A DNA stretch of 64,000 bases from Phycisphaerae bacterium (GCA_049510055.1 JBEKZI010000003.1:10576-74575), one strand, 5' to 3'. Shown: positions 15,972 to 40,016, numbered from the stretch's first letter. A program made the numbers and translations. Notes: generated by a model from the sequence alone, not told the origin.

Positions 15972-16002
15972 GGCCTAACCTCGATTTTTCTTGTCGCGGC
16001 GG

Positions 16003-18183: not shown

Positions 18184-18204
18184 GACACTGTCTCCTGTCT
18201 ATCG

Positions 18205-20758: not shown

Positions 20759-21267
20759 GTTGAAGCCGGCCTGCGCGGGCCTTTTTTGTCTCTGTCTTTT
20801 TCTTTGCCTTTACCGACGGTGCGAAGCAGGGCGTCGGCCTTGTCGGGGGTCATCTTGCCGTGGTAGGCGCCGTCCAGCACGACGATCGGCCCTATCGCGC
20901 AAGCGCCGAGGCAGTTGACGCTGACCAGTGTGAATCGGCCGTCCGCCGTGGTGCCGCCCGAGGCGACCTGCAATCGCCGCTGGAGGTGTTCCAGCATCGT
21001 CGTCGCCCCGCAGACGTGGCAGGCCGTGCCGGTGCAGACGGTAATCTCATGCTTGCCTCGCGGCGTGAGGCGGAAAGAGCGGTAGAACGTCGCCAACCCG
21101 TACAGCCTGGCCAGCGGCACGCCGAGTTCGCGGCTGACGGCCTTGAGCACCTCGGCGGGGAGATAGTCGTACTGCCCTTGGACTTCCTGGAGCAGCATCA
21201 CCAGGCTGTCGTCGCCGGCGACGTACTGGCAGCACAGCTTCGGAACGGCTTTGAGATCAACGGCCAC
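20755..21267 (-). CDS. NuoE/HoxE-like thioredoxin-fold [2Fe-2S] protein
   Basis: 'CTGTACHVCGA...CLGACAIGP' motif. ATGA overlap with the downstream nuoF-like gene. Confidence 0.8.
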   Translation of the reverse strand: MAVDLKAVPKLCCQYVAGDDSLVMLLQEVQGQYDYLPAEVLKAVSRELGVPLARLYGLATFYRSFRLTPRGKHEITVCTGTACHVCGATTMLEHLQRRLQVASGGTTADGRFTLVSVNCLGACAIGPIVVLDGAYHGKMTPDKADALLRTVGKGKEKDRDKKGPRRPAST

Positions 21268-21802
21268 GATTTCGCTCCATGGCTAAGCGGGCGGCGTCCT
21301 CTCCCGCGGCGATCTTCGCCGCGGCCTCTTGTCGCCGCCGCTTTAGCCATTCATCCACTTCGCAAAACTCCAGCGCCCCGGTGGGGCAGCCGGCCACGCA
21401 AGCCGGTTCCTCACCCTCCTGAGTGAGCTGGAGACACAGGTCGCACTTCACCATCGCCTTGCCATCGCGGGAAAGGTCAATGACGCCGAAGGGGCAAACC
21501 TGCAGGCAGAACTTGCATCCGATGCACTTGGCAGACTCGATGAGCACCGGCCCGTTCTCGACGGGGCGATGGATCGCCTCGGTCGGGCAGACCGTCATGC
21601 ACGGGGCGTCCTGGCAATGGCGGCATTGCAGCGGGATGCCGCACGTCCCGGCCGCCTCCACGTGCACGCGCGGCTGCGGCGGCGCAGCGGACGCGACGGC
21701 CTCGGCCAGGCTCTTGGCCTCGCTGTGCGCCATGGCGCACTGGAGCACGCAGGTCTTGCACCCCAGGCAGCGCTGCTCGTTGATGACAATCATCTTGGCC
21801 AT
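21257..21802 (-). CDS. cooF: CooF-type 4Fe-4S ferredoxin (CODH electron-transfer subunit)
   Basis: ATG 21802 with AAGGAG 6 nt upstream gives 'MAKMIVINEQRCLGCKTCVLQC...'. Four CxxCxxCxxxCP-type motifs. Confidence 0.8.
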   Translation of the reverse strand: MAKMIVINEQRCLGCKTCVLQCAMAHSEAKSLAEAVASAAPPQPRVHVEAAGTCGIPLQCRHCQDAPCMTVCPTEAIHRPVENGPVLIESAKCIGCKFCLQVCPFGVIDLSRDGKAMVKCDLCLQLTQEGEEPACVAGCPTGALEFCEVDEWLKRRRQEAAAKIAAGEDAARLAMERNRGR

Positions 21803-21815
21803 GGGAGGCTCCTTG

Positions 21816-23768
21816 CTAGACGGCCACGGCGGCGGCACTGGCCGTCCGCGGGGCGTAGGGGACCGGGTACATGGGGCCGGGCAGGTGCAGGGCGGCGCGC
21901 TTGGCGTCGATGTGGTCGATGATCAAGCGGGCGGCCTTGATCGGGTCGGCCTCAAAAGCGAACTTGCCGCCGAACAGTTTCTCGATGCCGCCGCAGAGGA
22001 ACTCGGTCAGTTGCGGGGCGCCCTGGACCGGCAGCGGCTCGCCCAGCACGGTGAAGACGCCCGAGGCGACGGCGTAGAAGCCGATGGCCACAGCCTTCTC
22101 GCTCATCCATTCCGGCGCGGCCGCGGCCACGGGCAGGTCGGCGATGCTTTGGCCCAGGCCTCCCTCGGCCACGACCCGGGACAGGACCACCAGGATGCGG
22201 CTGATGTCCACGCAGGAACCCAGGTGCAGCACGGGCGGAATGCCGACGGCCCGGCAGATTTCCCGCACGCCGGCCCCACCGTACTGCTCCGCCGCCTCGG
22301 GGCACAGCAGGCCGGCCTTGGCGTCGGCCACGGCGGAGCAGCCCGTCACGGCGACCAGCACGTCGTTGGCGAGCAGTTCCTTGGCCATGGCCAGGTGCCC
22401 GTAGTCGTGGGGGAGAATGCGGGGGTTGTTGCACCCGACCACGCCGGCCACGCCGCGAAGCCGGCCGGACATGACGGCGTCGTTCAGCGGCCGGTAGCTG
22501 GCGCGGTAGCGGCCACCCAGCATCGTGGCGATGTTCTCCGCCGTGAAGCCGGCCACCAGCGGCTGGCTGTCCGGCGGCACGCACGGGGCGGCCTTGCGGT
22601 TGGGGAAGTTCTCCACGGCCATGCGGACGATCCGCTTGGCGGTCGCCAGGGCCTTGGATTCGTCGAACTCCACGTGCTCGGCGTAGGGGAACTTGGCCTT
22701 GGGCGACGTGGAGATGAACTTGGTGTGGAATTTTTGGGTCAGCTTGCCCAACGCCGGGAAGACGCACTGAACGTCCACCACCATCGCGTCGACCACGCCG
22801 GTGGCCACGGCCAGCTCCTGCTGGAGGAAGTTCCCGGCCAGCGGGATGCCATGCCGCATCAGAATTTCGTTGGCCGTGCAGCAGATACCGCCCAGGTTGA
22901 TGCCGGTGGCGCCCTTGCTCTTGGCCAGGGCCAGAAGCTCCTTGTCCTGTGCGGCGGCGACGATCATCTCCGAAAGCGTCGGCTCGTGGCCGTGGACGAC
23001 GATGTTCACCATGGCCGGGTCCAGGATGCCCAGATTGGCCCGGCTGCGGACCCACGTGGGCGTGCGGAACAGCACGTCGGACAGCTCCGTGGCGATCATC
23101 GAGCCGCCCCAGCCGTCCGCCAGGGCCGCCCGGACGCCTTGAAGAATAATGTTGGTGGGTTCGTTGTCGACGCCCATGTTGGTGCGGTGCATGATCTCCA
23201 CGACCTCGCGGTCCACGCCGCGGGGCACCACGCCCGCCTCTCGCCAGCGGCGGCGCTGGTCCTGGGGGGCCCGGGCGGCGAACACCACCTCGCCGTGCTG
23301 CTGGCCGAACTGGCCGAAGGCGATCGTGGCTACGGCCAGGGCGATCTCGCGGAGGTCCTTGCCGTCGGTGGCCACGCCCAGCTCGCCGGCCAGGGCGCGG
23401 AGCTTGACGGGGTCCTTGATCTGATAGTCGCAGTCGGCCCGCTCGGCCGCCATGAGCAGCGTGTGGGCGATGTCCCGCCCGTGGTCCGAGTGGGCCGATG
23501 CCCCGGCGGCGATCATTCGCACCAGGTTCCGGGCGGCGATGATATCCGCCGTCGCCCCGCAGATGCCCTCGGAAGGCCCGTCGCCGAAGGGGTCGATGCG
23601 GCAGGGGCCCATCTTGCAGTTGCGGCAGCAGATGCCCAGTTGCCCAAAGCCGCATTGCGGCTCCATGGCCTCCTGGCGGTCCCAGGCGACCTGGAGGTCC
23701 TGGGCGGCTGCTTTGGTCAGCATGGCTATGGTTGCAGGGTCAACGCTGCGTTGTTGAGGGGTTTTCAC
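21816..23768 (-). CDS. cooS: Anaerobic Ni,Fe carbon monoxide dehydrogenase catalytic subunit
   Basis: N-terminal 'CGFGQLGICCRNCKMGPCRI' B/D-cluster motif; 650 aa; hybrid-cluster/CODH family over the full length. Confidence 0.9.
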   Translation of the reverse strand: MKTPQQRSVDPATIAMLTKAAAQDLQVAWDRQEAMEPQCGFGQLGICCRNCKMGPCRIDPFGDGPSEGICGATADIIAARNLVRMIAAGASAHSDHGRDIAHTLLMAAERADCDYQIKDPVKLRALAGELGVATDGKDLREIALAVATIAFGQFGQQHGEVVFAARAPQDQRRRWREAGVVPRGVDREVVEIMHRTNMGVDNEPTNIILQGVRAALADGWGGSMIATELSDVLFRTPTWVRSRANLGILDPAMVNIVVHGHEPTLSEMIVAAAQDKELLALAKSKGATGINLGGICCTANEILMRHGIPLAGNFLQQELAVATGVVDAMVVDVQCVFPALGKLTQKFHTKFISTSPKAKFPYAEHVEFDESKALATAKRIVRMAVENFPNRKAAPCVPPDSQPLVAGFTAENIATMLGGRYRASYRPLNDAVMSGRLRGVAGVVGCNNPRILPHDYGHLAMAKELLANDVLVAVTGCSAVADAKAGLLCPEAAEQYGGAGVREICRAVGIPPVLHLGSCVDISRILVVLSRVVAEGGLGQSIADLPVAAAAPEWMSEKAVAIGFYAVASGVFTVLGEPLPVQGAPQLTEFLCGGIEKLFGGKFAFEADPIKAARLIIDHIDAKRAALHLPGPMYPVPYAPRTASAAAVAV

Positions 23769-24092
23769 AACGGCACCTCTTTTCTTGGATTGGGCGGTCA
23801 GCCTGGAGGCGTCAGAGGCCGAGTTTGGCAGACTTGCACAACCCTCCGTGATCAGAACGGTACACTGGCCATTTCCTCCGGCCTGTCTGGATGACTACGT
23901 CCCTGGAAGGTAGCAAAACACCGGTTGTCCAAGCAACCCATTTTTCAGGCAAAGCCGGGCAAGACGGCCGGGTCGCGGATTGCCTTGCAGCAAACGGGCA
24001 AGGCGGATAAGCTCCCGCCTTCCGACCGGAGGGAGGGACAGGGGGATTTCAGCGAAGATAAAAACGAAAACGAGCACGGGGCCGGAGCGACG

Positions 24093-24884
24093 ATGAAGCT
24101 GGCGATATCGGGCAAGGGTGGGGTGGGCAAGACGACGCTGTCGGCGATGCTGTCAGCCGCGTTGAGCCTGGAGGGCCGCGGCGTCGTCGCCATCGACGCC
24201 GACCCCGACGCCAACCTGGCCTGGGCCCTGGGGGTGCCCGCCGAGGAACGCATCACGCCGCTGGCCGAAATGCGGCAGCTCATCCAGGAACGCACCGGCG
24301 CCAAGGAAGGCTACGGGGCCTTCTTCAAGCTCAACCCGCACGTGGAGGACATCCCCGACGCCTATTGCCGGCGGATCGGCAATATTCGCCTGCTGGTGCT
24401 GGGGGGCATTACCCGCGGCGGGGACGGCTGCTTATGTCCAGCTACCGCCTTATTGAAGGCCCTGCTAGTGCACCTGGTGCTCGGCCGGGACGATGGCCTA
24501 GTCATGGACATGGAGGCCGGCCTGGAGCATCTGGGCCGGGCCACCGCCCAATCTATGGACGCCCTGGTCGTCGTGGTGGACGGCGGCGCCTGGAGCATCC
24601 AGACCGCCCGGCGGGTGCGAAAGTTGGCCGCCGACTTGGGTCTGCGCCGCGTCGTGGCCGTGGCCAATCGCGTGGACCGGCCGGCGGAGCTGGCAAAGAT
24701 TGCCGGGCGCCTGGAAGATATCCCCCTGGTCGGCCATTTGCCGATGGATGATCGGCTGGCCGCGGGCGTCATGCGAATCGCACCCGGCGGCCGGGCCGAA
24801 GCCGCCGAGGTGCTGACGGACCATCTGGAAGCCGCCCGAAAAATTCTTTCGGAGATTCAACGTTTAGACGCACATCACCGCTAA
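24093..24884 (+). CDS. cooC: Second CooC/AcsF-type nickel-insertion ATPase
   Basis: ATG 24093 gives '[15 protein letters not shown]'. The 56-codon upstream extension of the ORF is rejected. Divergent from the cooS operon; TAA stop lies 11 nt before the fhs ATG. Confidence 0.8.
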
Positions 24885-24895
24885 GGAGAGTGATC

Positions 24896-26641
<1,746 letters not shown>

Positions 26642-26712: not shown

Positions 26713-29196
26713 CTACTTCAGCTCGGTGAACAGCAGCACCCGCGGCTTGGTGGCGGCCGTGGTGCAATTGCTGCGGTCGATCACGGCCACGTATCGCCGG
26801 TAGGGGTCCGTGGACAGGGGGGCCGCGGAGCTGCGGCCCGCCGGCACCACCTGCACGCGGATGAAGGCGATGTACACGTCGCTCCGCACGGTCACCTGAT
26901 TGGCCAACCAGCTATAAAGCGTGTAATACTTGATCGGGTCGCCGGAGGGATAGGTCGACAGGCCGTCATCGCTGCCGCTAACGCTGGGATCCACGGCATA
27001 GTTGTTAGGCGGCTTATTGCTGTTGTAGTAGTTATTGGCTGACATATTGGCCTCGTGCAACGGAATGGCCACTTCGCCGGCACAGACAAAGCCGCGCTGA
27101 ATCCGCAGATTGGTGATGCCGGTGGTGCTGGCCGCCCGAGTGCTGTAATCATGGCCGTTTGCCGCCATGGTCATGTCGCGATAGGCGATGATCTCATCGA
27201 CCATCGTGTTCGCGTCAGTTATTGACAAGGACGCGATGCCGGGCAGGCATTTGAGGACCGCACGCGGGGCCGTGTTGATGTTGATCTGGCCTTGGATGTT
27301 GTAGTTGGGGTCCGGCGGCAGGAGATTGAAGTACTCGCTGACGGCGCAGCCCAGCGGCACGGCCGGAAAGGCCCCGGCAGGCGTCGACAGCGATACGGTT
27401 CCTGCCGGTCCAACGGTGAGGATGCGCATCATGTCGCCCAGGCTGATCATGGGGCCGTTGCGGACATAAACCGGCGTGGGAGTCCCGCTTGTGGGCAGGA
27501 ATGGATTGGGTAGGCCCATCTTGGGTCCACTGGGGAGCGTGTAGTCATAACCGCTAGGGTCGCTATAATTAGGGTCGGTGACGATGGTGTTGGAGTCGAG
27601 TATACGATAGCTTTCTACGCTGTAGCCGGCGGTACTGAGAACGTCGTTACGGAAGGCGGCCATCCAGCGGGACGAATTGGCGCTGGGGGGCGGCATGGTG
27701 AGTGCCGGTGTCTGGTCGACACAGACCGTCCCTCCACCGTTTGGGTCTGTCCATATGATTTGTTGGACTCCGTCAAGGGCCAGCGAGGCCACCAGACGTG
27801 AGGCGGGGTCTGGCATATTGGGGTCGCCGGTGGGTGTCGTCTGTACGGAAGAATCGGAGATGAGAAAGCGTCCTCCATTGCCGGGGATGGACTTGCCCGT
27901 GAAGGATGTGCCACCCTGGATGCTGTAGTTATCCAGGAGGATGGTATTGACGTAAGGATTGATGAGTTCCACAGCGGATATTGATGACGTGTTTGCATCG
28001 GCGTCGGATGTTTTCTTCCAGAACACCTTGGACACGAACGGATGCCGCGCCACGCCGTAAACGTAGGTGTTAGCCGGAACGTTAGAATCCAAGATATTCA
28101 CGTCCAGCCGGATCACCGCGTTGGGATCCACGTTGAGGTAGTTCTTCAGGTTCACCACGAGCTGGGCGGCCTTGATCTGGTTGCTGTTGGAGTCGGGGGG
28201 CAGCGGGGCGGTGGGATAGTAAGCTTGAAGCATAGCCCGAAAGGCGCTATACATGTTGGCATCACTCGCAAGAGGGTTGGGATCCTGCTTGAACTGTGTG
28301 GCGCCCGAACGGTAGGTCCACAGGGGGCTGAGGGTCTTGGAGGATGAGACGGTCGTGAAGTTGAAAGACCCTTTCGTGGCTATAAGATTACCCACTGTAG
28401 CCAATCGTCCGACGACCGTGTTGGGGTCCACGTTGGGGTCCGACAGGTGGCCTAGGGCCAGCATATCGCCCATGTCGTAGAGGCCGCTGCTTCGACTGCT
28501 CGCCACAGTGCCGGCATTGGCCAGGAGGGCGGCCATGTTGCAGTCGGAGGCGTCCATGACGTGGACGGCGTTGGCGTCCCGGGTGGTGTTGGCTATGTTG
28601 ACGTTCAGTAGGCCGGCGGCGTCGATCATCCGCACGGCCGCGAAGAACTTGTTACCCTGGCGGTCGGTGAGACCCGTGTCGAACAGGTAGGCGTCGCTGA
28701 CGCTATCGCCATCCGTATCCACCACAAGGTTCGGGTCGACATTGGGGTCTACGGTATTGAAATTATAGGTGTCGAACGTCGCACTCACGCCGGACATGTG
28801 CGAGACATGAGGCCACTTGCGGGGCGTGCTGTTGTCACGCTCGATGCTGGCCAGGGCGCTGTCGAACCATTGATTCGGATCAACGGAGGTGACTCCATTG
28901 CTCGCCTCGGCAGGGTAATCGATCATCTGCCGCTCGGCGATGCTGGGGTCGGCGTTGCAATTGCCGTAGATCACGTTGGAGGCGTTGATGTACAAATCCG
29001 CCACGCGATTGGCCAGGAGGCGGTCCAGGACGCTTTCGGCCACGTGGCGCTGGGGGGCGGTGTCGGCCATGGCCTGGCTGGTCTGGCGGTCCAGGCGGCT
29101 GACCAGCAGCAGCATCGAGCCCAGCATGGCGATGATCGTCAGCAGGCCGATCACCAGCAGCAGCACCGAACCGCGATGTCTCTTGTTTTGTTTCAT
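26713..29196 (-). CDS. Giant GspK-like minor pseudopilin (827 aa) with N-terminal transmembrane anchor
   Basis: 'RHRGSVLLLVIGLLTIIAMLGSMLLLVS' is a GspK-type non-canonical prepilin N-terminus. Last gene of the pseudopilin operon. 11 DPN tripeptides. Confidence 0.55.
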   Translation of the reverse strand: MKQNKRHRGSVLLLVIGLLTIIAMLGSMLLLVSRLDRQTSQAMADTAPQRHVAESVLDRLLANRVADLYINASNVIYGNCNADPSIAERQMIDYPAEASNGVTSVDPNQWFDSALASIERDNSTPRKWPHVSHMSGVSATFDTYNFNTVDPNVDPNLVVDTDGDSVSDAYLFDTGLTDRQGNKFFAAVRMIDAAGLLNVNIANTTRDANAVHVMDASDCNMAALLANAGTVASSRSSGLYDMGDMLALGHLSDPNVDPNTVVGRLATVGNLIATKGSFNFTTVSSSKTLSPLWTYRSGATQFKQDPNPLASDANMYSAFRAMLQAYYPTAPLPPDSNSNQIKAAQLVVNLKNYLNVDPNAVIRLDVNILDSNVPANTYVYGVARHPFVSKVFWKKTSDADANTSSISAVELINPYVNTILLDNYSIQGGTSFTGKSIPGNGGRFLISDSSVQTTPTGDPNMPDPASRLVASLALDGVQQIIWTDPNGGGTVCVDQTPALTMPPPSANSSRWMAAFRNDVLSTAGYSVESYRILDSNTIVTDPNYSDPSGYDYTLPSGPKMGLPNPFLPTSGTPTPVYVRNGPMISLGDMMRILTVGPAGTVSLSTPAGAFPAVPLGCAVSEYFNLLPPDPNYNIQGQININTAPRAVLKCLPGIASLSITDANTMVDEIIAYRDMTMAANGHDYSTRAASTTGITNLRIQRGFVCAGEVAIPLHEANMSANNYYNSNKPPNNYAVDPSVSGSDDGLSTYPSGDPIKYYTLYSWLANQVTVRSDVYIAFIRVQVVPAGRSSAAPLSTDPYRRYVAVIDRSNCTTAATKPRVLLFTELK

Positions 29197-29212
29197 GTTC
29201 GCACCTATCTCA

Positions 29213-30043
29213 CTACCGCGGAACAGGACAGATTACCTCGTAGTCCATGTAGTCCTTGTTGGGGTCGTTCCCCGTCTTGAGGCGGAAGTTGACCTTAATG
29301 GCCGGAGGAAGGGGGTATGGACTGGCCGAGTTGGGGTCTTCAAAAGCCGTAGTCGTCCAAAGTTGAAGATTGGTCGCAGTGGTCGTGACCCAGGTGTTGC
29401 CGGTCGGGTTCCACCAAGACACCCTGAACTGAGCGCACGAGCCAGCTAGCAGCGACCAAAAGCCGTTAGTGTCCAGTGCGACGGTCTTGGGGATGTTGGG
29501 GTCGGCGCAATACGTTGGCATTTGGTTGACGGTGTCAATGCGAGAGGGGCAATTGGGGTCGTATTGCCCCAGCCAGGTGTTCTCTACGTCGAGCGTAGTG
29601 GTCGCGGCGCCGGGCAGGAGCAAGGTAGCCTTGCGCCATAGATTGCCGTTGGCATCCAGGCCATAGGCGATCCGAGCGGCGTTGGCGACGGAGTCTTTGG
29701 TCGTGGAAGTCGTGCCGGTGAAGGTGCCCACGGCCGTGAAGACCAGGCGATTGTTGGGGTCGGTGGCGGGGTTATTGGGGTCGTACACGGCCAGGAAGCC
29801 CTGGGGCGACAGGCGTGCCATGTCGTCGCGGAGGACCTGGGCGATGGCCGAGGCGGAGGCGTTGGCCTGTATGAAGGCGTTGGACATGTCCGACACCGTT
29901 CGGGTCTGCGCCAGGATCGTGCTGAAGGCCACCATGATGAGGGCCAGTATGCCCATGGACACCAGCAGTTCGACCATCGTCATGCCATGGCTTGGTCGCC
30001 GGGCGGGTGAGTGAGCGTCAAATTGTGCCGAACGCCTTCTCAT
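29213..30043 (-). CDS. GspJ-like pseudopilin (prepilin-type N-terminal domain)
   Basis: '...SHG|MTMVELLVSMGILALIMVAF'. Confidence 0.55.
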   Translation of the reverse strand: MRRRSAQFDAHSPARRPSHGMTMVELLVSMGILALIMVAFSTILAQTRTVSDMSNAFIQANASASAIAQVLRDDMARLSPQGFLAVYDPNNPATDPNNRLVFTAVGTFTGTTSTTKDSVANAARIAYGLDANGNLWRKATLLLPGAATTTLDVENTWLGQYDPNCPSRIDTVNQMPTYCADPNIPKTVALDTNGFWSLLAGSCAQFRVSWWNPTGNTWVTTTATNLQLWTTTAFEDPNSASPYPLPPAIKVNFRLKTGNDPNKDYMDYEVICPVPR

Positions 30044-30052
30044 GTTTTAGGC

Positions 30053-30784
30053 TCACGGATTCAGGAGCACGTCGGCCACCACGACCGCCGTGGCCGGACT
30101 TTTGGCCGTCGCGCTGGGATCCACGATTACAAAGGCACCGCCGCCGGTTGCGCTCAGCGCGCGGTCTAATGTTCCTTTATTGGGATTGCTGGGATCGCTG
30201 GAATCGCGGTCGATAATCTTGGCCCAACTGCCGTCGGCGGCCACGATGAGAGGGGAACCTATGGGCGCGATGGTTCCTAAAGCCGCCACGGTCACGCCAT
30301 TGGAGGTGGTCGTGCTAAAGGTGGTGGACAGGGCATTCACGATATTTGCGCTGGATTGCTTGTTGTAGGAGACGATCACAAGCTGGACCGGGCCACTGGG
30401 GTCAGCCGTATCCAGCCTTCGGCCTAGGACCACGAATCCTCGCGTGGCGGCGCCGGGCGCGCTGGGGTCGTAGAGGTAGTGTTGAAGCTCTCTATCAATG
30501 GGGGGACTAGCCATGCTTTCATCCACCACGCAAACGAGGGAGCCGGCCGTTTGGTTGATGGCGGAGTTGTGCAGCATCGTCTGGGCCACGGCCAGGCCGT
30601 TTTCGGCGACGATGGTGCCGATGGAATCCTGACCGGACTGCTCGTTGAGCCTGATGGCGGCGGGGAACAGGGCCGCGGCCATCGACAATCCGATGGCCAG
30701 GATGCCCAACGCCAGCAGCAACTCTATAAGGGAGAACGCCCGTCGCGCTCGATTCCGTCGGCCAATATGGCGTGCGCGTCTCAT
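30053..30784 (-). CDS. GspI-like pseudopilin
   Basis: 'RRA|FSLIELLLALGILAIGLSMAAALFP'. Confidence 0.55.
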   Translation of the reverse strand: MRRARHIGRRNRARRAFSLIELLLALGILAIGLSMAAALFPAAIRLNEQSGQDSIGTIVAENGLAVAQTMLHNSAINQTAGSLVCVVDESMASPPIDRELQHYLYDPSAPGAATRGFVVLGRRLDTADPSGPVQLVIVSYNKQSSANIVNALSTTFSTTTSNGVTVAALGTIAPIGSPLIVAADGSWAKIIDRDSSDPSNPNKGTLDRALSATGGGAFVIVDPSATAKSPATAVVVADVLLNP

Positions 30785-30788
30785 GGGC

Positions 30789-31544
30789 CTATCTCCCTAA
30801 AACCGTGCCGGTGTAAAGGTTGATGGCCAATAGCTGCCCGTAATTGGTCAGGTAGGTGGGCTTGTCGGTGGCCTTTAGGAACTTGTCATAGTCAAACAGC
30901 ACCGCCGCCTTGACGGAACTGTTGCAGGCGGAGTTATCGGCGTCGGAAGAATTCCACAGGTAAGCCCTGCTGGTCGTCGAGTTTGCAAAGCCGGCTGTTG
31001 TGTTGTCGAAAGTTATGGTCTTTCCGTCCTCCAATTGCCCATTGGACGCGAACACGAAGGTCAGAGTGGTGAAAAGATTCAGTTGGTTGGGGTCAGGACG
31101 GTAGTTTCCACCGGCCACACCGCCGAAGGCCATCGAGGCGGGCATTTTTTGGGGCGCATAGCCCTCGGCCAGGATGAAGCGATTGGGGTTGGCGCTGTCG
31201 TTGGGGTCATGCCAGATGATGGCCGAGAAGCACGTGTTGGTCAGGTTCTTGAGGTACGGGGCGTTGGTGTTGTTGGCGTCGGCCAGTTGGATGTGAACGC
31301 CGGCGTAGGTGCGGTTCTGGATAGCCACCATGCGTGCGGCGGCGAGTTGCCCGACCAGGAGGTTATAGGCCTGGGCGTCGGAACCGGCGGTGAACAGGCC
31401 GACGATGCTAGGCAGCACGACGGTCGCCATGAGGCCGATGATGAACAGCACCACCAGCAGCTCCACGAGGGTGAAAGCTTCGGCCCGCAGGCTGGGGCCC
31501 GAAGGAACCTTGGTCCATCGCATTGTCGTCGTACGTCCCGTCAT
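30789..31544 (-). CDS. GspH-like pseudopilin
   Basis: 'SGPSLRAEA|FTLVELLVVLFIIGLMATVVLP'. Confidence 0.55.
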   Translation of the reverse strand: MTGRTTTMRWTKVPSGPSLRAEAFTLVELLVVLFIIGLMATVVLPSIVGLFTAGSDAQAYNLLVGQLAAARMVAIQNRTYAGVHIQLADANNTNAPYLKNLTNTCFSAIIWHDPNDSANPNRFILAEGYAPQKMPASMAFGGVAGGNYRPDPNQLNLFTTLTFVFASNGQLEDGKTITFDNTTAGFANSTTSRAYLWNSSDADNSACNSSVKAAVLFDYDKFLKATDKPTYLTNYGQLLAINLYTGTVLGR

Positions 31545-31556
31545 GGTCCAACCGCC

Positions 31557-32096
31557 TCATTGACTTTCGTCCGAGCGAATATCGTCCTCGCCGTTGGGAT
31601 CGCCGGCGGATGTCCCGCCGAACTTTCCGTCCGGACCTTCGGAGATGACCACGGGCTTGCCGCCCAATCCGCCATTGGGGTCATAGTGCATGTCATGTCC
31701 CCAGGAATCCTTGACGGCGGAGTTCGAGTCGCCGGTCCAGGCATCTTTGGGCAGCTTCAGCAGTACGTCCGTAGCTGCTTTGGCGGCGGCGGCCTGAGCG
31801 CTAGGGTCTTTTCCAGTGAGGTAACGCATCAGGTCTATTCCGCTGTTATTGGGATCGGTAACAGGCGGATATCCTTGGGGGATGTTGGCGTCGTGGAAGG
31901 CCTGGATGGCCTGCATCAGGACCTTTTCGGTGGAGGCGGTTTCGCGAGAGGCGGCGGACTTCATCACGTATCCGGCCACGCCGGCGACGATGGCCGCCAG
32001 CACGCCCAGGATGAAGATCACCACCAGCACCTCGACAAGCGTGAATGCTTTGGTCGAGCGGCGGGCCGCCGCGTTATTTGTCCGAATGCTCCTCAC
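31557..32096 (-). CDS. gspG: GspG-type major pseudopilin
   Basis: 'STKA|FTLVEVLVVIFILGVLAAIV' and C-terminal 'ISEGPDGKFGG...DD' Ca-site-like motif. Confidence 0.75.
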   Translation of the reverse strand: MRSIRTNNAAARRSTKAFTLVEVLVVIFILGVLAAIVAGVAGYVMKSAASRETASTEKVLMQAIQAFHDANIPQGYPPVTDPNNSGIDLMRYLTGKDPSAQAAAAKAATDVLLKLPKDAWTGDSNSAVKDSWGHDMHYDPNGGLGGKPVVISEGPDGKFGGTSAGDPNGEDDIRSDESQ

Positions 32097-33947: not shown

Positions 33948-35210
33948 TTATCTTCCAGTTCCAAGTCCTTGGATCATGGACACCAGGGGCATGAACAGGG
34001 CGATGACGATGGTGCCGATGATCAAGCCCAACATGATGATCATGACCGGTTCCAGCAGGTGGGTCAGGTTGCCCACGAGGCCGTCCACTTCTTCGTCGTA
34101 GGTGTCGGCGACCTTGTTGAGCATTTTGTCCAGTTCGCCGGTTTCCTCGCCCACGTCGATCATGTTGATCACCATGGGATCGACGATTCGGGCGACCCGC
34201 AGAGGGGCGGCGAAACTTTCGCCCTCGCGGATGCCCTCGCGGACCTTGCCCAGCGCCCGGGAGTACACGTCGTTTCCGGCGGTCTCGGCGGTGATGGTCA
34301 GCGCCTCCAGAATGGGCACGCCGGCCGCCAGCAGCGTTCCCAGCGTGCGGCTGAACCGCGCAATGGACGTCTTGCTGATGATCATGCCGAAGATGGGCAC
34401 GCGAAGCTTCAGAAGGTCCAGTATGTACCGTCCGCCTTGAGAGAACCGGATCAGCTTCAGGAGGACCACAACGAGCACGGGAATGCCCAAAAGGACCGCC
34501 CAGCCGCCTTTGACGACCCAATCGCTGGTGTTCAGGAGAAAGCTGGTGATGGCCGGAAGCTTAACGCCCATGCCTTGAAAGATGTCTTTGAACTTAGGGA
34601 TAACGAACGTCAGCATCATGCCCATGATGGCGCAGGCGAAGCTGATGACGGCGACCGGATAGATCATCGCGCCCTTGACCTTGCTCTTGAGGGATTGGCT
34701 TTTTTCCATGAAGTCGGCCAGGCGGAAGAGGATGGTGTCCAGCACGCCGCCCACCTCGCCGGCGCGAACCATGTTGGTGTACAAGCGGTCGAAAGCCTTG
34801 GGATGCCGCGCCATGGCCTCCGACAGCGTGGCGCCGCCTTCGACGTCGTCGGCCACGTAGCGGATGGCGATGCGCATCATGCCGGGCTTCTGCTGCTGCT
34901 CCAGAATGCGGAGGCTTCGCAGAATCGGCAGGCCCGCGTTGATCAGCGTGGACAGCTGTCGCGTGAACTGGGTGATCAATTTGGTGGACACGCCGCTGAC
35001 CTTACGGCGCTTGGCGCCGGGGGCCGCTGCCGCGGCAGCGGCGCGGCCTTTGCCGGCGGCGGCCTTCTTGGCGGTCTTTTCCTTGATCTTCGTGGGGAAG
35101 TTGCCCATCGCCCGGACCTTGGTGATGGCTTCTTCCGAGGACGCGGCGTTCACCTCGCCCTTGACGGACTGGCCCACGCTGTTCATGGCTTCGTACGTGT
35201 AAACGGGCAT
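33948..35210 (-). CDS. gspF: Type II secretion/type IV pilus platform protein GspF/PilC
   Basis: Two T2SF repeats; 'MPVYTYEAMNSVGQSVKGEV' start; three TM segments. Confidence 0.9.
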   Translation of the reverse strand: MPVYTYEAMNSVGQSVKGEVNAASSEEAITKVRAMGNFPTKIKEKTAKKAAAGKGRAAAAAAAPGAKRRKVSGVSTKLITQFTRQLSTLINAGLPILRSLRILEQQQKPGMMRIAIRYVADDVEGGATLSEAMARHPKAFDRLYTNMVRAGEVGGVLDTILFRLADFMEKSQSLKSKVKGAMIYPVAVISFACAIMGMMLTFVIPKFKDIFQGMGVKLPAITSFLLNTSDWVVKGGWAVLLGIPVLVVVLLKLIRFSQGGRYILDLLKLRVPIFGMIISKTSIARFSRTLGTLLAAGVPILEALTITAETAGNDVYSRALGKVREGIREGESFAAPLRVARIVDPMVINMIDVGEETGELDKMLNKVADTYDEEVDGLVGNLTHLLEPVMIIMLGLIIGTIVIALFMPLVSMIQGLGTGR

Positions 35211-35250
35211 GGCCGAACTCCTTTGTGGCAGTCGGGTCGCCGGAGCGGCC

Positions 35251-37017
35251 CTATTCTGTGTCCTCGTAAATGGTTTGCGAGACCACTTCCTCGATGGTCG
35301 TCAGACCGTCGTAGATGGCCAGCAAGCCGCTGTCGCGGAGGGTTCTCATACCCTTCTTGCGGGCGGCCTCGCGAAGCACGTTGGTGCTGCTGCGCTTCAT
35401 GATCAAGTCCCGTATGTGATCGTCCAACAGCATGATCTCGAAGATGGCCACCCGGCCGCTGTAACCGGTGCCGCGGCAGACGTCGCAGCGTCGCCCGTGG
35501 AAGAACGTCCTGCCGGCGACCTGGTCGGGCGTCAGGTTCAGCTCCATCAGCGCTTCCTCGGTCGGCATGTAGGTCTCCTTGCACCGCTGGCAAATCCGAC
35601 GCACGAGGCGCTGGGCGACGATGCCTTCCAGCGTCGCCGTCAACTTGAAGGGTTCCATGCCCAGGTCCAGCAGACGGGCGATGGTGGAGGGGGCGTCGTT
35701 GGTGTGCACGGTGGAGAACACCAGGTGCCCGGTCAGCGACGCCTGCACGGCGATTTCGCCAGTCTCCTGGTCGCGGACCTCGCCCACCAGCACGATGTCG
35801 GGGTCCTGCCGCAGGAAGTGCCTCAGGCAGCGGGCGAACGTCAAGCCGATGTCGTCCTTGATCTGGACCTGCACCAGACCGTCGATGTCGTACTCGACGG
35901 GATCCTCCGCCGTGAGGATTTTCACGCCGACGTCGTTCCGCTCGTTGAGGGCCGAGTACAGCGTGGTGGTTTTGCCCGAACCGGTCGGACCGGTGACGAT
36001 CACGATTCCGTTGGGCCGATTGATGAGCTGGCGGAACAGTCGAATGTCGTCTTCGCGCATGCCCAGACGGTCCAGCTCCAATTGCACCTGGGAGCGGTCC
36101 AGCACGCGAAGCACGATGCTTTCGCCGAACATGGTCGGCAACACGGCGACGCGCAGGTCCACGGGCGAGTTGTTGATCGTCAGCGGAATGCGACCGTCCT
36201 GCGGCATGCGGCGCTCGGCAATGTTCAGGTGAGACATGACCTTGATGCGCGACGCGATGGCCGCCGCGATGGATTTGGGAGGCGGCAGCATTTCGTACAG
36301 CAGGCCGTCGATGCGGTAACGCATCTTGAACTCGTCCTCGAACGGTTCGAAGTGGATGTCCGAGGCGCGGTCCTTGATGGCCTGCATGAGCACCATGTTC
36401 ACCAGCCGCTTGACGGGATTGGCCTCCGCGGCGCCGCGAAGGGTGTCCAGGTCGATGCTTTCCCCGCGGTTTTCCAGTTGCGACAGCTGCTCGTCGCCGA
36501 CGATCTCGTTGATCAACTCCCCGATGGACCCCATGGTGGTGGTGGCCTGGGTCTCTAAGCCGTAATGCTTGGCCAAGGCCGCTTCCAACTGTTCGCCGTC
36601 GGCGATGCGAGTCACGATCTCGAATCCCGTCAGCGTCCGCAGATCGTCCGCCGCACGAAAGTTGTCCGCCGAGGCCAGGGCGACCACCAACCGCTTGGTG
36701 GAAGGGATGAATTCCAACGGCAGGACCTTGTAGTTGTTGGCCATCTGAGGGGGGATGTGGGCGATGACGTCGGGAGGGATTTCCACAGACGACAGGTCGA
36801 CGTATTCCATGCCCGCCTGGAAACCCAGGGCCAGGTTGCGAGTCCTATCATCGATATATCCCAGGTCGACCAGAATTTGGCCGATAGGCCCCCCGCGCTG
36901 CTTTTGGACCTCGATGGCCTGGTTGACCTGGTCGCGGGTCACCTTGCCCATCTTCAGCAAGACCCGTCCCAGGACGCGCCCTTTCAGCTCTTTGACGTTG
37001 TAGGTTTCAACAGCCAT
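35251..37017 (-). CDS. GspE/PilB-family assembly ATPase with N-terminal T2SSE_N (MshEN-like) domain
   Basis: Walker A 'GPTGSGKTTT'; Asp/His boxes; tetracysteine 'CQRCK...CDVCRGTG'. Confidence 0.9.
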   Translation of the reverse strand: MAVETYNVKELKGRVLGRVLLKMGKVTRDQVNQAIEVQKQRGGPIGQILVDLGYIDDRTRNLALGFQAGMEYVDLSSVEIPPDVIAHIPPQMANNYKVLPLEFIPSTKRLVVALASADNFRAADDLRTLTGFEIVTRIADGEQLEAALAKHYGLETQATTTMGSIGELINEIVGDEQLSQLENRGESIDLDTLRGAAEANPVKRLVNMVLMQAIKDRASDIHFEPFEDEFKMRYRIDGLLYEMLPPPKSIAAAIASRIKVMSHLNIAERRMPQDGRIPLTINNSPVDLRVAVLPTMFGESIVLRVLDRSQVQLELDRLGMREDDIRLFRQLINRPNGIVIVTGPTGSGKTTTLYSALNERNDVGVKILTAEDPVEYDIDGLVQVQIKDDIGLTFARCLRHFLRQDPDIVLVGEVRDQETGEIAVQASLTGHLVFSTVHTNDAPSTIARLLDLGMEPFKLTATLEGIVAQRLVRRICQRCKETYMPTEEALMELNLTPDQVAGRTFFHGRRCDVCRGTGYSGRVAIFEIMLLDDHIRDLIMKRSSTNVLREAARKKGMRTLRDSGLLAIYDGLTTIEEVVSQTIYEDTE

Positions 37018-37038
37018 GGGTCTATAGCCTCAAGTGGG

Positions 37039-38178
37039 TTATTGCTCTTCCTTGGCTTCCTTGGCTTCCACCAGCGGTTTGCTCGACGGCGGCGGAATCG
37101 GTTTGCCGCTTTCCGTGGCCTCGATCTTTTCCTGGAGATCGCCGGGGTTCTGGCTGCGGTCGATGGCCTCGATCTTGTCTATCTTCCCCTCCGACCAGAG
37201 CCGGAAGAGGTGGTCGTCCAGCAGTTGCATGCCGTACTTTTTTCCAGTCTGAATGGAGGAGGGAATGCGGAAGACCTTGTTCTCGCGGATCAGGTTGGCC
37301 ACGGCGTTGGTGACGTACAGGAACTCAAAGGCCGCGACCATGCCCTTGATGTCGCAGCGGGGCATCAGGGCCTGGCACAGCACCGCGATGATCGACTCCG
37401 ACAACTGCACGCGGATCTGCTCCTGCTGGTTGGTGGGGAAGATGTCCACGATGCGCGTCACCGTCCGGTGGGCGGTGGTGGTGTGAAGCGTGCCGAACAC
37501 CAAGTGGCCGGTCTCGGCTGCACGAAGGGCCGCCTCGATCGTCTCCAGGTCGCGGAGTTCGCCCACCAGGATCACGTCGGGGTCCATACGCAGCACGCGC
37601 CGCAGCGCTTCGCTGAAGCTCGGCACGTCCGGGCCCACCTCGCGCTGATTGACCAGGGACTTCTTGTGATAGTGGTAATACTCGATAGGGTCTTCGATAG
37701 TGACGATGTGCCGGTCGAACGTCTCGTTGATGTAATTGATCATCGTCGCCAGCGTAGTGGTCTTTCCGGAACCCGTAGGCCCGGTCACCAGGAAGATCCC
37801 TCTGGGGCGGCGGCAGATGTTTTGGACGATTGGCGGCAGGCCGATTTGCTCGAACGTCAAGAGCTTGGAGGGAATCAGACGCAGGCAGATGGAGATGTTC
37901 CCGCGCTGCATGAACACCGACGTTCTGAATCGGCCCGCCGTGCCGAATTCAAAACCGAAGTCCGTGCCGCCTTGCTCCTGAAGTTCCTGCTGGTTTCGTT
38001 CCGGCGTGATGGACTTCATCAGGGCGATGGTGTCCTCCGGTTCCAAGGGCTTGGTCTCCAGCGAACGCAACCGCCCGTGCAGTCTAAGTGTCGGTGCGCG
38101 CCCGACATAGAGGTGCAAGTCACTGGCACCTCGTTTCACGCACGTTTCAAGCAGCCTGTCAATATGGATTGTGGACAT
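37039..38178 (-). CDS. pilT: PilT-type retraction ATPase
   Basis: 'MSTIHIDRLLETCVKRGASDLHL', 'GPTGSGKTTT', 'GHLVFGTLHT'; 379 aa with no N-terminal extension. Confidence 0.9.
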   Translation of the reverse strand: MSTIHIDRLLETCVKRGASDLHLYVGRAPTLRLHGRLRSLETKPLEPEDTIALMKSITPERNQQELQEQGGTDFGFEFGTAGRFRTSVFMQRGNISICLRLIPSKLLTFEQIGLPPIVQNICRRPRGIFLVTGPTGSGKTTTLATMINYINETFDRHIVTIEDPIEYYHYHKKSLVNQREVGPDVPSFSEALRRVLRMDPDVILVGELRDLETIEAALRAAETGHLVFGTLHTTTAHRTVTRIVDIFPTNQQEQIRVQLSESIIAVLCQALMPRCDIKGMVAAFEFLYVTNAVANLIRENKVFRIPSSIQTGKKYGMQLLDDHLFRLWSEGKIDKIEAIDRSQNPGDLQEKIEATESGKPIPPPSSKPLVEAKEAKEEQ

Positions 38179-38297
38179 CTGATCCTCTCCTGCTTATTAT
38201 TCGCCACTTACACTGTTTTCGGCAGAGTACCCCAAAAATTCCCTCGACTGTTCGTTAAATCTAACTTCATTTTAGGCATACTGTTACAGAAAAACTC

Positions 38298-40016
38298 TCA
38301 TTCGAGAACAAGTTCACCGGCCTGAGCGTTCGCCAAAACTTCCTCCGCCGTCGTGATTCCGTGGAGAATTTTGAGTCTCCCGTCGGACAAAAGATTTCTC
38401 ATGCCGCTAGCCATCGCAGCCTGTCTCAGGTCCGACAGAGTCGACCCTCGGAAGGCCAGCTCGCGGAGCTCGTTATTCATGACCAGCAGCTCAAAGATTC
38501 CTTGACGGCCCCGATAGCCTGTTCCGTGGCAGTTTTCGCAACCTTTTCCTTTGTAGAAGGTTGCATTTGCGGCTTCCTCCTTGCCAAACCCGAGCATCCT
38601 GATCATTTTTTGATCGACATCTTTGTCAACGCCCTTGCATTTGGGGCAGATGACTCGGATCAGTCGCTGGGCCATGATGGCCTGGATACTGCTTGCGACA
38701 AGGAACGGCTTGACCCCCATATCGATCAGGCGCGTGATGGCGGATGGGGCATCGTTGGTGTGAAGTGTACTAAAAACCAAGTGTCCAGTTAAAGCAGCCT
38801 GGATAGCAACTTCAGCGACCTCTAAGTCTCGGATTTCGCCGACCAGGATGATGTTCGGTGCTTGGCGCAGCATGGCTCGAAGGATTCGAGCAAAGGTGAG
38901 ATTAATGGCCTCGTTGATCTGGACTTGGTTGACGCCGGTGAAATTGTACTCAACGGGATCCTCAGCCGTGATGATCTTGCGGTCGGGGCGGTTGAGTTCA
39001 TTGATAGCCGCATAGAGGGTGGTGGTCTTGCCGGAGCCGGTGGGGCCGGTTACGAGGAACATGCCGTTGGGGCGTTTGATGATCCTTATGAACCGTTCGT
39101 AGTCGTCCTGCTCGAATCCCAGGGCGGGAATGCCCAGGCGGACGCTTTCAGGCCGCAAAATACGCAGCACCATGCATTCCCCGTGGTAGGCGGGCAGGGA
39201 CGAGACACGGAAGTCGATCTTGCTTCCGCCGATGTCCATCTTGATTCGACCGTCCAGGGGCAGGCGTTTCTCGGCCAGGTCCATGCCGGACATAATCTTG
39301 AAGCGGTTGATCACGGGGCCTTGCATCCGCTTGGGAATGGGTTCGCGGTCGATGCACACGCCGTCCACGCGGTAACGGACGCGGACACGGTTGGTCATGG
39401 GTTCCACGTGGATGTCCGACGCCCTCATTTCGACCGCCTGGGTGATGAGCATGGTCACCAGCCGCACGATGGGGGCGGCGCCGTCGTCTTCCAGCAGGTC
39501 CAGCCCGTGGGCTTCCCCCGGGGCCACGTCGATGGTTTGCCGGCGAATCTCGTCCACGGCGGCGTCGATGCTCACCTCCGCGGCCGCCGGATTGGCCTTG
39601 TTGAGGTAGGCGTGGAACTTCGCCTTGGTCGTCAGGCAGGGCTGGATTTCGCAATTCAGCCGGAATCGCAGCATGTCCAGGGTCTCAAGGTCCATCGGGT
39701 CGGTGATGATTACCTTGAGCTTGCCCGCTTCGCGGTTCAGGGGCAGGACCATTCGGTTGCGGACAACTTCTTCGGGCAGGAGGTGGGCTTCGGGGGCTTG
39801 GGTGTCTGGCTTGAGGTCGAAGTACTCTATCTCGTACTGATACGCCATGGCCTTGGCGATGTCCTCCTCGCTGGCCAGGTTCATCGCGACCAGGGTTTCG
39901 CCGAGGCGCATGCCCTTTTTTCGACCCTGGGCCATGGCCTCGTCGATGCTCTTCTGGCTGGCCACGCCCCGCTCGACCAGGATTTCACCGAGACGTTTTC
40001 GCTTCTTTTTCGCCAT
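38298..40016 (-). CDS. Second GspE/PilB-family assembly ATPase with N-terminal domain
   Basis: 'GPTGSGKTTT', 'GHLVFSTLHTNDA', 'CPKCKG...CENCHGTG'; 572 aa. Confidence 0.85.
   Translation of the reverse strand: MAKKKRKRLGEILVERGVASQKSIDEAMAQGRKKGMRLGETLVAMNLASEEDIAKAMAYQYEIEYFDLKPDTQAPEAHLLPEEVVRNRMVLPLNREAGKLKVIITDPMDLETLDMLRFRLNCEIQPCLTTKAKFHAYLNKANPAAAEVSIDAAVDEIRRQTIDVAPGEAHGLDLLEDDGAAPIVRLVTMLITQAVEMRASDIHVEPMTNRVRVRYRVDGVCIDREPIPKRMQGPVINRFKIMSGMDLAEKRLPLDGRIKMDIGGSKIDFRVSSLPAYHGECMVLRILRPESVRLGIPALGFEQDDYERFIRIIKRPNGMFLVTGPTGSGKTTTLYAAINELNRPDRKIITAEDPVEYNFTGVNQVQINEAINLTFARILRAMLRQAPNIILVGEIRDLEVAEVAIQAALTGHLVFSTLHTNDAPSAITRLIDMGVKPFLVASSIQAIMAQRLIRVICPKCKGVDKDVDQKMIRMLGFGKEEAANATFYKGKGCENCHGTGYRGRQGIFELLVMNNELRELAFRGSTLSDLRQAAMASGMRNLLSDGRLKILHGITTAEEVLANAQAGELVLE

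Follow-up and report, generated by a model that had tools for sequence, protein, structure and literature searches.

The tripeptide Asp-Pro-Asn (DPN) occurs at some 20–30 times its chance frequency in five neighbouring minor pilin (pilus-tip) genes, and in one unrelated surface protein, of an uncultured Phycisphaerae bacterium. The excess is genuine and it recurs in related bacteria. In all likelihood DPN serves as a preferred turn or cap in surface loops and does not signal a new machine. All six genes lie in a single 64 kb stretch of DNA (hereafter called the window). A literature search did not find DPN enrichment in pilins described.

Results

DPN is enriched at the protein level

The sequence-only reading of this DNA had counted 11, 6, 2 and 3 DPN in the K-like, J-like, H-like and small GspG-like pilins, and both its counts and its ORFs proved exact (Table 1). 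From their own composition these proteins should contain just 0.34, 0.10, 0.04 and 0.04 DPN, respectively. The reported recurrence in a PEP-CTERM protein, whose sequence is unrelated to the pilins, is also borne out (5 DPN, 0.18 expected). When the residues of each protein were shuffled 20,000 times the observed count was never reached, except for the H-like pilin (12 of 20,000). The remaining 40 ORFs of the window, 15,806 residues in all, contain 3 DPN where 1.3 are expected.

Could the excess be an artefact of D-, P- and N-rich secreted-protein composition, of the DNA word GAYCCNAAY, or of recent slippage? The proteins concerned have somewhat elevated D, P and N contents, and cytoplasmic ORFs too have a mild DPN excess (observed/expected about 1.9–2.7). 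However, the composition estimates and shuffles given above fall far short of the observed counts, and the five minor pilins together hold 22 DPN, whereas every other ordering of the three residues occurs 0–1 times. A six-frame scan of the whole window found 32 DPN, 27 of them in frame in the six genes and 5 elsewhere. The codons vary synonymously (GAC/GAT, CCC/CCG/CCA/CCT, AAC/AAT), and there are no tandem DNA repeats over the sites. These tests refute an artefactual origin, to which we leave almost no probability. The comparison that the sequence-only reading had named as a possible refutation, DPN density in cytoplasmic proteins, gives the same answer: 0.17–0.22 per 1,000 residues in cytoplasmic-type ORFs against 5–13 in the DPN-rich pilins.

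A probable type IV pilus-like operon

The genes follow the order of the T2SS/T4P tip complexes GspH-I-J-K and XcpU-V-W-X, with a small G-like pilin and then H-, I-, J- and K-like proteins. The prepilin N-terminal motif PF07963 is found in G, H, I, J, G2 and G3 (21.4–31.8 bits, cut-off 21.2), and TIGR02532 matches occur as well. The K-like protein did not match this motif, as expected of GspK-type proteins, and like GspK it carries a helix-hairpin-helix segment, here a putative one. Its match to PF03934 (T2SSK/helix-hairpin-helix) is weak (aa 636–675, E = 0.077, 13.8 bits against a cut-off of 24.2), and the sole match in a profile search, to the ComEA helix-hairpin-helix, is weak as well (E = 0.15); its homologue P0004 matches both PF03934 and PF12836. 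GspK proteins are about 330 residues long, and the K-like protein exceeds them by far. The top Foldseek match of the J-like model is XcpW/GspJ (5vtm_W; E 8e-3, probability 0.98, TM 0.34/0.51), from a model of low confidence (pLDDT 54). The 179-residue pilin scores below the cut-offs of TIGR01710 (45.2 bits against 88.85) and PF08334 (18.5 bits against 21), so we call it GspG-like only. The Gsp names given in the earlier reading find partial support: G, H, I and J carry the prepilin motif, but no Gsp family model exceeds its curated cut-off.

A further difference from the tip complexes named above is that PilT and two c-di-GMP-type PilB ATPases are encoded in the same operon. PilT passes TIGR01420 comfortably (445 bits, cut-off 319); scores for the PilB and PilC equivalog models are under their cut-offs, and both PilB-like proteins have an MshE-type c-di-GMP-binding N-domain. 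A secretin (GspD) and GspC/L/M were not seen among the scanned subset of window ORFs. The presence of PilT above cut-off within the operon points to a filament that is probably type IV pilus-like rather than a classical T2SS.

Two larger pilins and the assembly machinery contain no DPN, and the two pilins provide an internal contrast inside the operon.

Table 1. Location of DPN and related features in the window
Feature	Position	Strand	DPN and variants; remarks
K-like giant minor pilin, 827 aa	26713..29196	−	11 DPN (aa 106, 150, 154, 253, 257, 305, 357, 458, 484, 541, 629), 3 DPS, 5 DAN, 3 DSN
ININTAP, start of putative helix-hairpin-helix segment in K-like	27265..27285	−	typical of GspK and ComEA
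DTDGDS, DxDxDG-like putative Ca2+ loop, K-like aa 160–165	28702..28719	−	alignment consensus VDTDGDGxxDAxLF
J-like minor pilin, 276 aa	29213..30043	−	6 DPN (aa 88, 95, 162, 181, 236, 260)
I-like minor pilin, 243 aa	30053..30784	−	0 DPN, 4 DPS (aa 106, 128, 197, 222)
H-like minor pilin, 251 aa	30789..31544	−	2 DPN (aa 113, 151)
Small GspG-like pilin, 179 aa	31557..32096	−	3 DPN (aa 81, 139, 166), 1 DPS
Larger pilin, 279 aa	32121..32960	−	0 DPN; GspG-like C-terminal 'SAGPD..G..DD' motif
Larger pilin, 324 aa	32973..33947	−	0 DPN; GspG-like C-terminal 'SAGPD..G..DD' motif
Assembly machinery: PilC/GspF-like, PilB/GspE-like, PilT, second PilB/GspE-like	33948..40016	−	0 DPN
PilT	37039..38178	−
PEP-CTERM surface protein, 448 aa	58453..59799	+	5 DPN (aa 87, 111, 146, 401, 405)

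The enrichment is specific to a narrow set of tripeptides

DPN is enriched 28.6-fold, EPN 14.4-fold, DPS 6.6-fold, DAN 5.7-fold and DSN 4.1-fold. NPD (0.5-fold), SPN (0.6-fold), DPG (0.8-fold), DPD (0.9-fold), DPT (1.0-fold) and NPN are not enriched. In [D/E]PN, position i accepts Asp or Glu and not Asn, and position i+2 accepts Asn or Ser and not Asp. Counted over the K and J families, DPx ends in Asn 130 times, in Ser 42 times and in any other residue at most 7 times. The residues that align with DPN in homologues are mostly DPS, DAN, EPN and DSN; the Asp and the Asn/Ser persist, and a small residue lies between them.

The flanks are unremarkable. A 'hydrophobic-x-DPN' context had been proposed, but a hydrophobic residue lies at −1 or −2 in 48% of sites against 53% expected; flank composition equals background and the proposal is unsupported. 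The flanks have the ordinary composition of folded proteins (31% hydrophobic), not that of a low-complexity linker. Relative to background, Tyr (1.49-fold), His (1.85-fold), Trp (1.26-fold) and acidic residues (1.14-fold) are slightly raised, with no correction for shared ancestry in the aromatic figures. Two residues past the Asn, Pro is 2.7-fold and Asp 2.0-fold over background, with Ser at 0.9-fold. The paired form DPNxDPN is real (3 pairs in the window) but not frequent, contrary to what had been suggested: it accounts for 4 of the 153 DP[NS] sites in pooled orthologues.

Density is conserved while positions turn over

Seven orthologous Phycisphaerae operons have the same pattern of two DPN-free major-like pilins followed by DPN-rich minor pilins. 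In L056 a single pilin, with 1 DPN, lies upstream of the minor pilins. The two-pilin orthologues of L001 have 0 DPN. The small pilin carries 2–5 DPN in each of the seven operons, and I-like orthologues in L001, L055 and L056 contain DPN. Other signal-peptide proteins, like the major-like pilins of the operon, have none.

Within this stable pattern the sites themselves shift. Twelve of 13 K-like orthologues, down to 31% identity, contain 4–16 DPN each, yet DPN is spread over 40 alignment columns in 12 K-like sequences, and a typical site is common to just 1–4 of 11 homologues. The sites fall in variable, gap-rich regions (gaps make up 35% of aligned cells at DPN columns). The sole well-conserved K-like DPN, aa 154, is common to 7 of 11 homologues, and the DTDGDS loop starts three residues after it. 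The K-like protein of L053 carries 15 DPS and 2 DPN beside pilins that retain DPN, which implies that Asn itself is not required. More widely, 58% of 141 K-like representatives lack DPN, and DAN-rich K-like variants exist. The K-like family comprises 3,342 representative clusters.

Discussion

We tentatively favour, at somewhat less than an even chance, the view that DPN is an Asx-Pro type I turn or helix N-cap in fast-evolving exposed loops. Asp at i would cap backbone NH groups, in an Asx turn or a helix N-cap; Pro or another small residue at i+1 would fix phi; and Asn or Ser at i+2 would complete the type I β-turn. One Phycisphaerae clade would have adopted DPN as its preferred hairpin closer, helix cap and builder of enlarged exposed minor-pilin loops, with lesser use in PEP-CTERM surface proteins. 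Selection would keep the number of elements, single sites being gained and lost by point substitution within existing loops.

The sequences fit the definition of the Asx-Pro motif, in which Asx occupies position i, a Pro or other small residue position i+1, and Asn or Ser position i+2. The turn statistics of Hutchinson and Thornton from 1994 reportedly count Asp at i, Pro at i+1 and Asn, Ser or Asp at i+2 with the residues that type I turns favour most. Moreover, NPNA/DPNA peptides of the malaria circumsporozoite protein (CSP) have been found experimentally to form type I turns or Asx pseudo-3-10 turns with an i-to-i+2 side-chain/backbone hydrogen bond (PMC7057269). None of the 17 DPN in the K- and J-like proteins falls within a predicted helix or strand, in poor models (pLDDT 43 and 54) where coil is close to the default. 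The two DPN in moderately confident parts of the models are both in β-hairpin loops (K-like aa 484, 'IIWT-DPN-GGG-TVCV'; J-like aa 260, 'RLKTGN-DPN-KDYMDYEV'), and DAN, DSN and DPS variants are placed at hairpins (J-like aa 130, K-like aa 400) or right before predicted helices (K-like aa 83, 312, 335, 661). Pfam/HMMER alignments suggest that the DPN of the GspG-like pilin map to the helix-2 N-cap, the β1-β2 hairpin turn and the C-terminal loop of GspG/PulG, where DPN would replace the PulG 'SPG' hairpin turn and 'TEQG' helix cap. The turn-forming unit suggested by the sequence-only reading is thus plausible and fits the data; because the structure models are poor, we infer the turn or cap conformation of DPN, and its surface exposure, and do not observe them. 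If the role is structural only, this is a clean natural case of one idealised turn or cap tripeptide reused at about 30 times expectation in rapidly evolving pilus-tip loops, useful in modelling and engineering such loops, and it draws attention to a large and uncharacterised planctomycete pilus family (>3,000 K-like clusters).

Some observations sit uneasily with a turn or cap. NPD, SPN, DPD, DPT and DPG form turns equally well, yet are not enriched, and EPN is enriched 14-fold although Glu cannot form an Asx turn. The restriction to a clade, evident from the DPN-free K-like representatives, is left unexplained, as is the absence of DPN from the co-operonic major-like pilins and other signal-peptide proteins. 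A different, and in our estimate unlikely, reading is that DPN and EPN are EF-P- or EfpL-dependent ribosome stalls on minor- and not major-pilin genes, which would tune output or couple it to EF-P/EfpL, or else time membrane insertion or folding. In E. coli Δefp ribosome profiling, DPN ranks ninth among the top 29 stall motifs, with a score of 17 (EPN 9.5), and only VPW is ahead of it among single-proline motifs; DPN and EPN also belong to the motifs that EfpL overproduction relieves best (DPN 7.8, EPN 6.0), which is not true of DPG, DPA, SPN or DPD (Sieber et al. 2024, PMC11611912). The same authors found DPN over-represented among EfpL-only targets, reported EfpL in the Planctomycetes/Verrucomicrobia/Chlamydiae (PVC) group, and describe factor binding as aided by an E-site codon that begins with G (Asp or Glu) (PMC11611912). 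In the pilins, DPN and EPN are indeed the top two non-positional xPy tripeptides, flanks are unconstrained, sites turn over with density kept, and neighbouring genes of a single operon contrast sharply. However, polyproline, the strongest EF-P target, is not enriched (in the five pilins PP has an observed/expected ratio of 1.06, and PPG, DPP, APP and GPP do not occur). Enrichment does extend to DPS and to DAN and DSN, which lack proline, and some K-like variants are rich in DAN. There is no special synonymous codon selection in DPN, the CCC excess coming from nucleotide context (p = 0.87); single-proline pauses are weak in E. coli, the organism to which the stalling and rescue results are confined. 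We likewise give a small chance to the reading that [D/E]-P-N is more than a handy turn and forms a selected functional code, borne specifically by the minor-pilin genes of a single operon and by some surface proteins. In its most interesting version the code would consist of EfpL/EF-P-dependent ribosome pause sites that set major:minor pilin stoichiometry or couple tip synthesis to metabolic state, their number selected and their positions drifting. If the translational reading is true, a defined gene set would for the first time be seen to concentrate single-proline pause motifs of the EfpL type; this would offer EfpL a directly testable role beyond Gammaproteobacteria and a novel means of setting subunit stoichiometry within an operon.

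Residue preferences at i and i+2, an acidic acceptor and an Asn/Ser donor, are also what one would see if DPN formed ligand micro-sites for Ca2+ or sugar hydroxyls and so a multivalent adhesive tip or surface. The EPN of C-type lectins is such an acidic-Pro-Asn tripeptide, both side chains of which bind Ca2+ and sugar hydroxyls, in a CTLD fold and with a partner WND motif. The motif occurs in tip pilins and surface proteins, the flanking Tyr, His and Trp are mildly raised (uncorrected for shared ancestry), and one DPN (K-like aa 154) directly precedes the DxDxDG-like loop. Yet neither partner residues nor their spacing are fixed, flank acidity barely exceeds background, sites are not positionally conserved, DPD, the better Ca2+ ligand pair, is not enriched, and a CTLD-type, other lectin or Ca2+-binding domain was not detected in these proteins. 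DxDxDG or EF-hand-type ligand spacing is absent around DPN, and the separate DTDGDS loop alone fits it. We consider ligand binding quite improbable, and the Ca2+ site suggested by the sequence-only reading is not supported. Neither is its suggestion of a determinant for a modification enzyme; a sequon on Asn or Ser, for glycosylation for example, we regard as very improbable. A short motif with free flanks, site turnover at constant density and confinement to exported proteins would suit a sequon, and the acidic residue two positions before Asn recalls the bacterial D/E-X-N-X-S/T sequon. However, Pro sits at −1, a position from which the PglB sequon excludes it, Ser/Thr are not enriched at +2, and Asn and Ser interchange, so that modification would need two different chemistries. 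A transferase gene was found neither among 30 window ORFs scanned nor conserved beside the orthologous operons.

A turn or cap remains the reading we prefer, and one of its closest known parallels is the Plasmodium falciparum CSP, whose NPNA and NVDP(DPNA) repeats share the [N/D]-P-N core, and even 'VDPN', in a surface-exposed protein. In CSP, repeated DNA encodes the repeats as a long, uniform tandem array that lies in a disordered region. By contrast, in the pilins DPN is dispersed, singly or rarely paired, through folded domains, with flanks of normal composition and without a DNA repeat.

The DPN excess acts on protein sequence

The tripeptide Asp-Pro-Asn (DPN) is as frequent as the sequence-only reading had it. 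Exact counting returns its numbers for the K-, J- and H-like and the small GspG-like minor pilins, and finds the motif again in the PEP-CTERM protein, a surface protein unrelated to the pilins in sequence (see the table); each protein's own composition predicts 0.04–0.34 copies. In 20,000 residue shuffles per protein the observed count was never reached, except for the H-like pilin (12 of 20,000). Moreover, DPN occurs 22 times in the five pilins, and each rearrangement of the three residues 0–1 times. A composition effect is rejected by these shuffles and counts.

A DNA-level origin fares no better. The six-frame translation of the window holds 32 DPN, 27 of them in frame within the six genes, and the codons spelling the motif vary synonymously, which rejects a DNA k-mer or strand effect. 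Recent slippage is rejected as well, since no tandem DNA repeats lie at the DPN sites. CCC is in pooled excess as the Pro codon inside DPN (p=0.005), but the difference vanishes once the reference is Pro codons of matched nucleotide context (p=0.87), and special codon choice is therefore rejected. Because the CCC excess vanishes in matched context, and with the shuffle, six-frame and codon counts, we conclude that the enrichment is real and acts on protein sequence.

A similar DPN density in cytoplasmic proteins would have refuted the sequence-only reading, and this is not what is seen. Where 1.3 DPN would be expected across the remaining 40 ORFs of the window (15,806 aa in all), 3 were counted. 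A sample pooled from 53 sources (339 ORFs) stands in for a true proteome-wide count. In it, prepilin-type proteins have 5.2 DPN per 1000 aa, PEP-CTERM proteins 2.3, other signal or transmembrane proteins likewise 2.3 (nearly all due to K-like proteins) and all remaining proteins 0.17.

Features of the window, with DPN counts
Feature	Position	Strand	DPN	Remarks
Wood-Ljungdahl / carbonyl-branch cluster	10834-26641			CODH (Prismane family), ACS beta subunit, two CdhD-type corrinoid Fe-S subunits, RACo activase, two CooC-like ATPases, NuoF-like and ferredoxin proteins, formate-tetrahydrofolate ligase
Background DPN	12519			conserved 'DADPN' of CooC/MinD-type ATPase
K-like	26713-29196	-	11
Putative DxDxDG-type Ca2+ loop	28702-28719	-		K-like aa 160-165
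J-like	29213-30043	-	6
I-like	30053-30784	-	0
9-bp unit, three copies	30181-30207			in I-like gene, TGGGATCGC on + strand; overlaps DPS site aa197
H-like	30789-31544	-	2
Small GspG-like pilin	31557-32096	-	3
PilB/GspE-type ATPase	35251-37017	-		MshE-type c-di-GMP-binding N-terminal domain (NF053729, above cut-off)
PilB/GspE-type ATPase	38298-40016	-		MshE-type c-di-GMP-binding N-terminal domain (NF053729, above cut-off)
ArfB/ICT1-like protein	40440-40985	-		181 aa; RF-1 domain, GGQ motif
653-aa protein	47431-49392	-	1	rhamnogalacturonan lyase family 11 C-terminal domain, FG-GAP-like repeat
PEP-CTERM protein	58453-59799	+	5

A type IV filament operon

The five minor pilin genes are consecutive. 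The prepilin N-terminal methylation motif is present in G, H, I, J and both upstream pilins. No Gsp family model reached its curated cut-off with the operon pilins, and PDB sequence searches gave similarity confined to the N-terminal helix or to the helix-hairpin-helix. The K-like protein has a weak T2SSK/helix-hairpin-helix match, with precomputed T2SSK matches in one homologue. XcpW/GspJ is the best match of the J-like model, itself of low confidence. Upstream of the pilins lie genes for PilC/GspF-like, PilB-like, PilT (above cut-off) and second PilB-like proteins, so ordered that the two PilB/GspE-type ATPases flank PilT. The locus encodes a type IV filament system that resembles a pilus more than it does a classical type II secretion system. 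The order PilB-PilT-PilB-PilC is found again in two related loci (L056 and L004).

The DPN contrast is conserved across related operons

The DPN observation is solid and conserved. Seven orthologous operons (L001–L004, L053, L055 and L056) were recovered, and all repeat the architecture and the DPN contrast of the window. DPN is missing from their machinery genes and nearly missing from the one or two large pilins that come first: L001 has 0 there, and the lone pilin of this kind in L056 has 1. Each small minor pilin carries 2–5, and the K-like proteins carry 4–16. Even in L056, with 58% GC and a K-like protein of ∼34% identity over part of its length, there are 13 DPN in the K-like protein and 2–3 per minor pilin. 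One K-like protein, P0010 from locus L054, is an exception with none, and the more distant relatives L005–L009 have 0–2. All homologues come from uncultured Phycisphaerae or Planctomycetota. PEP-CTERM homologues average 1.0 DPN across the family, and the closest ones, on contigs shared with DPN-rich pilus operons, have 4–6.

In L053 the K-like gene encodes 15 DPS and 2 DPN. The neighbouring pilins, encoded upstream on that contig, keep DPN, and a genome-wide N-to-S switch is rejected because only the K-like gene uses DPS there. This orthologue (P0009, L053 7239–9647) lies on a contig with fragmented gene calls and possible assembly errors.

The wide K-like family comprises 3342 clusters. Among 141 further representatives, 58% lack DPN and 11% have at least 4, and a few are DAN-rich instead. 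Four members (P0165, P0225, P0251 and P0278) carry 5–8 DAN and up to 5 DSN, alongside or replacing DPN, and in distant K-like proteins DAN and DSN often directly precede helix-like sequence, as in 'DANALYRAIYA'. Such sequences suggest that capping by D-[PAS]-N may be a wider habit of the family.

Narrow specificity, mobile positions

The tripeptide specificity is narrow. DPN is enriched 28.6-fold, EPN 14.4-fold, DPS 6.6-fold, DAN 5.7-fold and DSN 4.1-fold; NPN (2.4-fold), DPT (1.0), DPD (0.9), DPG (0.8), SPN (0.6) and NPD (0.5) are weakly enriched or not at all. The hydrophobic flanking context that had been proposed is absent, as residue composition around DPN matches background. Closely spaced sites are modestly over-represented: 20 of ∼127 intervals between neighbouring sites span 3–6 residues, against ∼7 expected by our own estimate.

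The positions of the sites are not conserved: the 70 DPN of twelve K-like sequences fall in 40 different alignment columns, at which gaps make up 35% of aligned cells. A site is typically shared by 1–4 of 11 homologues; the exception, aa154 (7 of 11), falls just before the conserved DxDxDG-like loop. That loop lies in a segment, VDTDGD[GS]xxDAxLF, present in nearly all K-like homologues and resembling the Ca2+ site of PilY1. P0001, a K-like variant of 94% identity found in another sample, has 13 DPN rather than 11, with a 14-aa insertion that holds an extra DPN and one DPS-to-DPN change, so that motifs turn over even between close strains. Comparison with the nearest homologue suggests that DPN gains would mostly be point substitutions within existing loops, for example from HPT, VPA, DAN or EPN.

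What the motif may do

The best-supported reading, plausible rather than probable, is that DPN is a turn/cap micro-motif. Asp, Pro and Asn, in that order, are among the residues most favoured in type I turns. NPNA and DPNA peptides have been seen to form type I or Asx pseudo-3-10 turns (PMC7057269). The turn-forming unit of the sequence-only reading would fit the AlphaFold models, themselves poor (pLDDT 54 for the J-like and 43 for the K-like protein): none of the 17 K- and J-like DPN falls in a predicted helix or strand. Two of them, K aa484 and J aa260, are in regions modelled somewhat better and sit in β-hairpin loops, and in the same poor models D[AS]N and DPS variants occur at hairpins or immediately N-terminal of predicted helices. 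The three DPN of the GspG-like pilin would align with the helix-2 cap, the β1-β2 hairpin ('SPG' in PulG) and the C-terminal loop. This one clade of Phycisphaerae might use a DPN turn/cap to build enlarged, fast-evolving exposed loops of tip pilins, and might use it likewise in some surface proteins. However, turn propensity alone does not account for why NPD, SPN, DPD and DPT are excluded, why Glu is accepted as the first residue or why the motif is confined to certain genes.

Another and, in our view, unlikely reading comes from the literature: DPN and EPN would be ribosome-stall motifs tied to the translation factor EF-P and its paralogue EfpL. In E. coli without EF-P, DPN is the ninth strongest of the top 29 stall motifs and EPN is listed too; stalls at both are specifically rescued by EfpL, which occurs in PVC bacteria as well, and factor binding is favoured by a G-initial E-site codon, Asp or Glu (PMC11611912). 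The DPN/EPN specificity of the pilins matches this, and so do the unconstrained flanks, the turnover of site positions and the gene-to-gene contrast inside one operon, but polyproline motifs, which test the idea, are not co-enriched, proline-free DAN and DSN are enriched, as is DPS, and a codon-level signal is absent. Binding of Ca2+, as proposed earlier, or of sugar by DPN sites is quite improbable; flanks enriched in aromatics and His, and one adjacent putative DxDxDG loop, are weak hints of it. The proposed recognition determinant for a modification enzyme is most unlikely, because position −1 is Pro, S/T is not enriched at +2, N and S replace one another, and a scan of 30 window ORFs turned up no transferase.

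Among the papers searchable to us, none dealt with DPN in pilins, with Phycisphaerae pseudopilins or with an 'Asx-Pro turn'. The motif would be an Asx-Pro turn, in a so far uncharacterised branch of the minor pilins of type IV filaments.

Surroundings

The PEP-CTERM protein (homologues P0025–P0144) belongs to a large family of at least 151 clusters, restricted to Phycisphaerae/Planctomycetota. The sorting tag is its sole Pfam domain, and its invariant blocks include NWWTP, FYMxYSQFDN and DQQVIRI.

The ArfB/ICT1-like gene immediately precedes the pilus operon and has the same orientation. Its product would be a ribosome-rescue peptidyl-tRNA hydrolase, a curious neighbour given the possible stalling nature of DPN.

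The Wood-Ljungdahl cluster implies that the host would be an anaerobic, possibly acetogenic or CO-using member of the Phycisphaerae.
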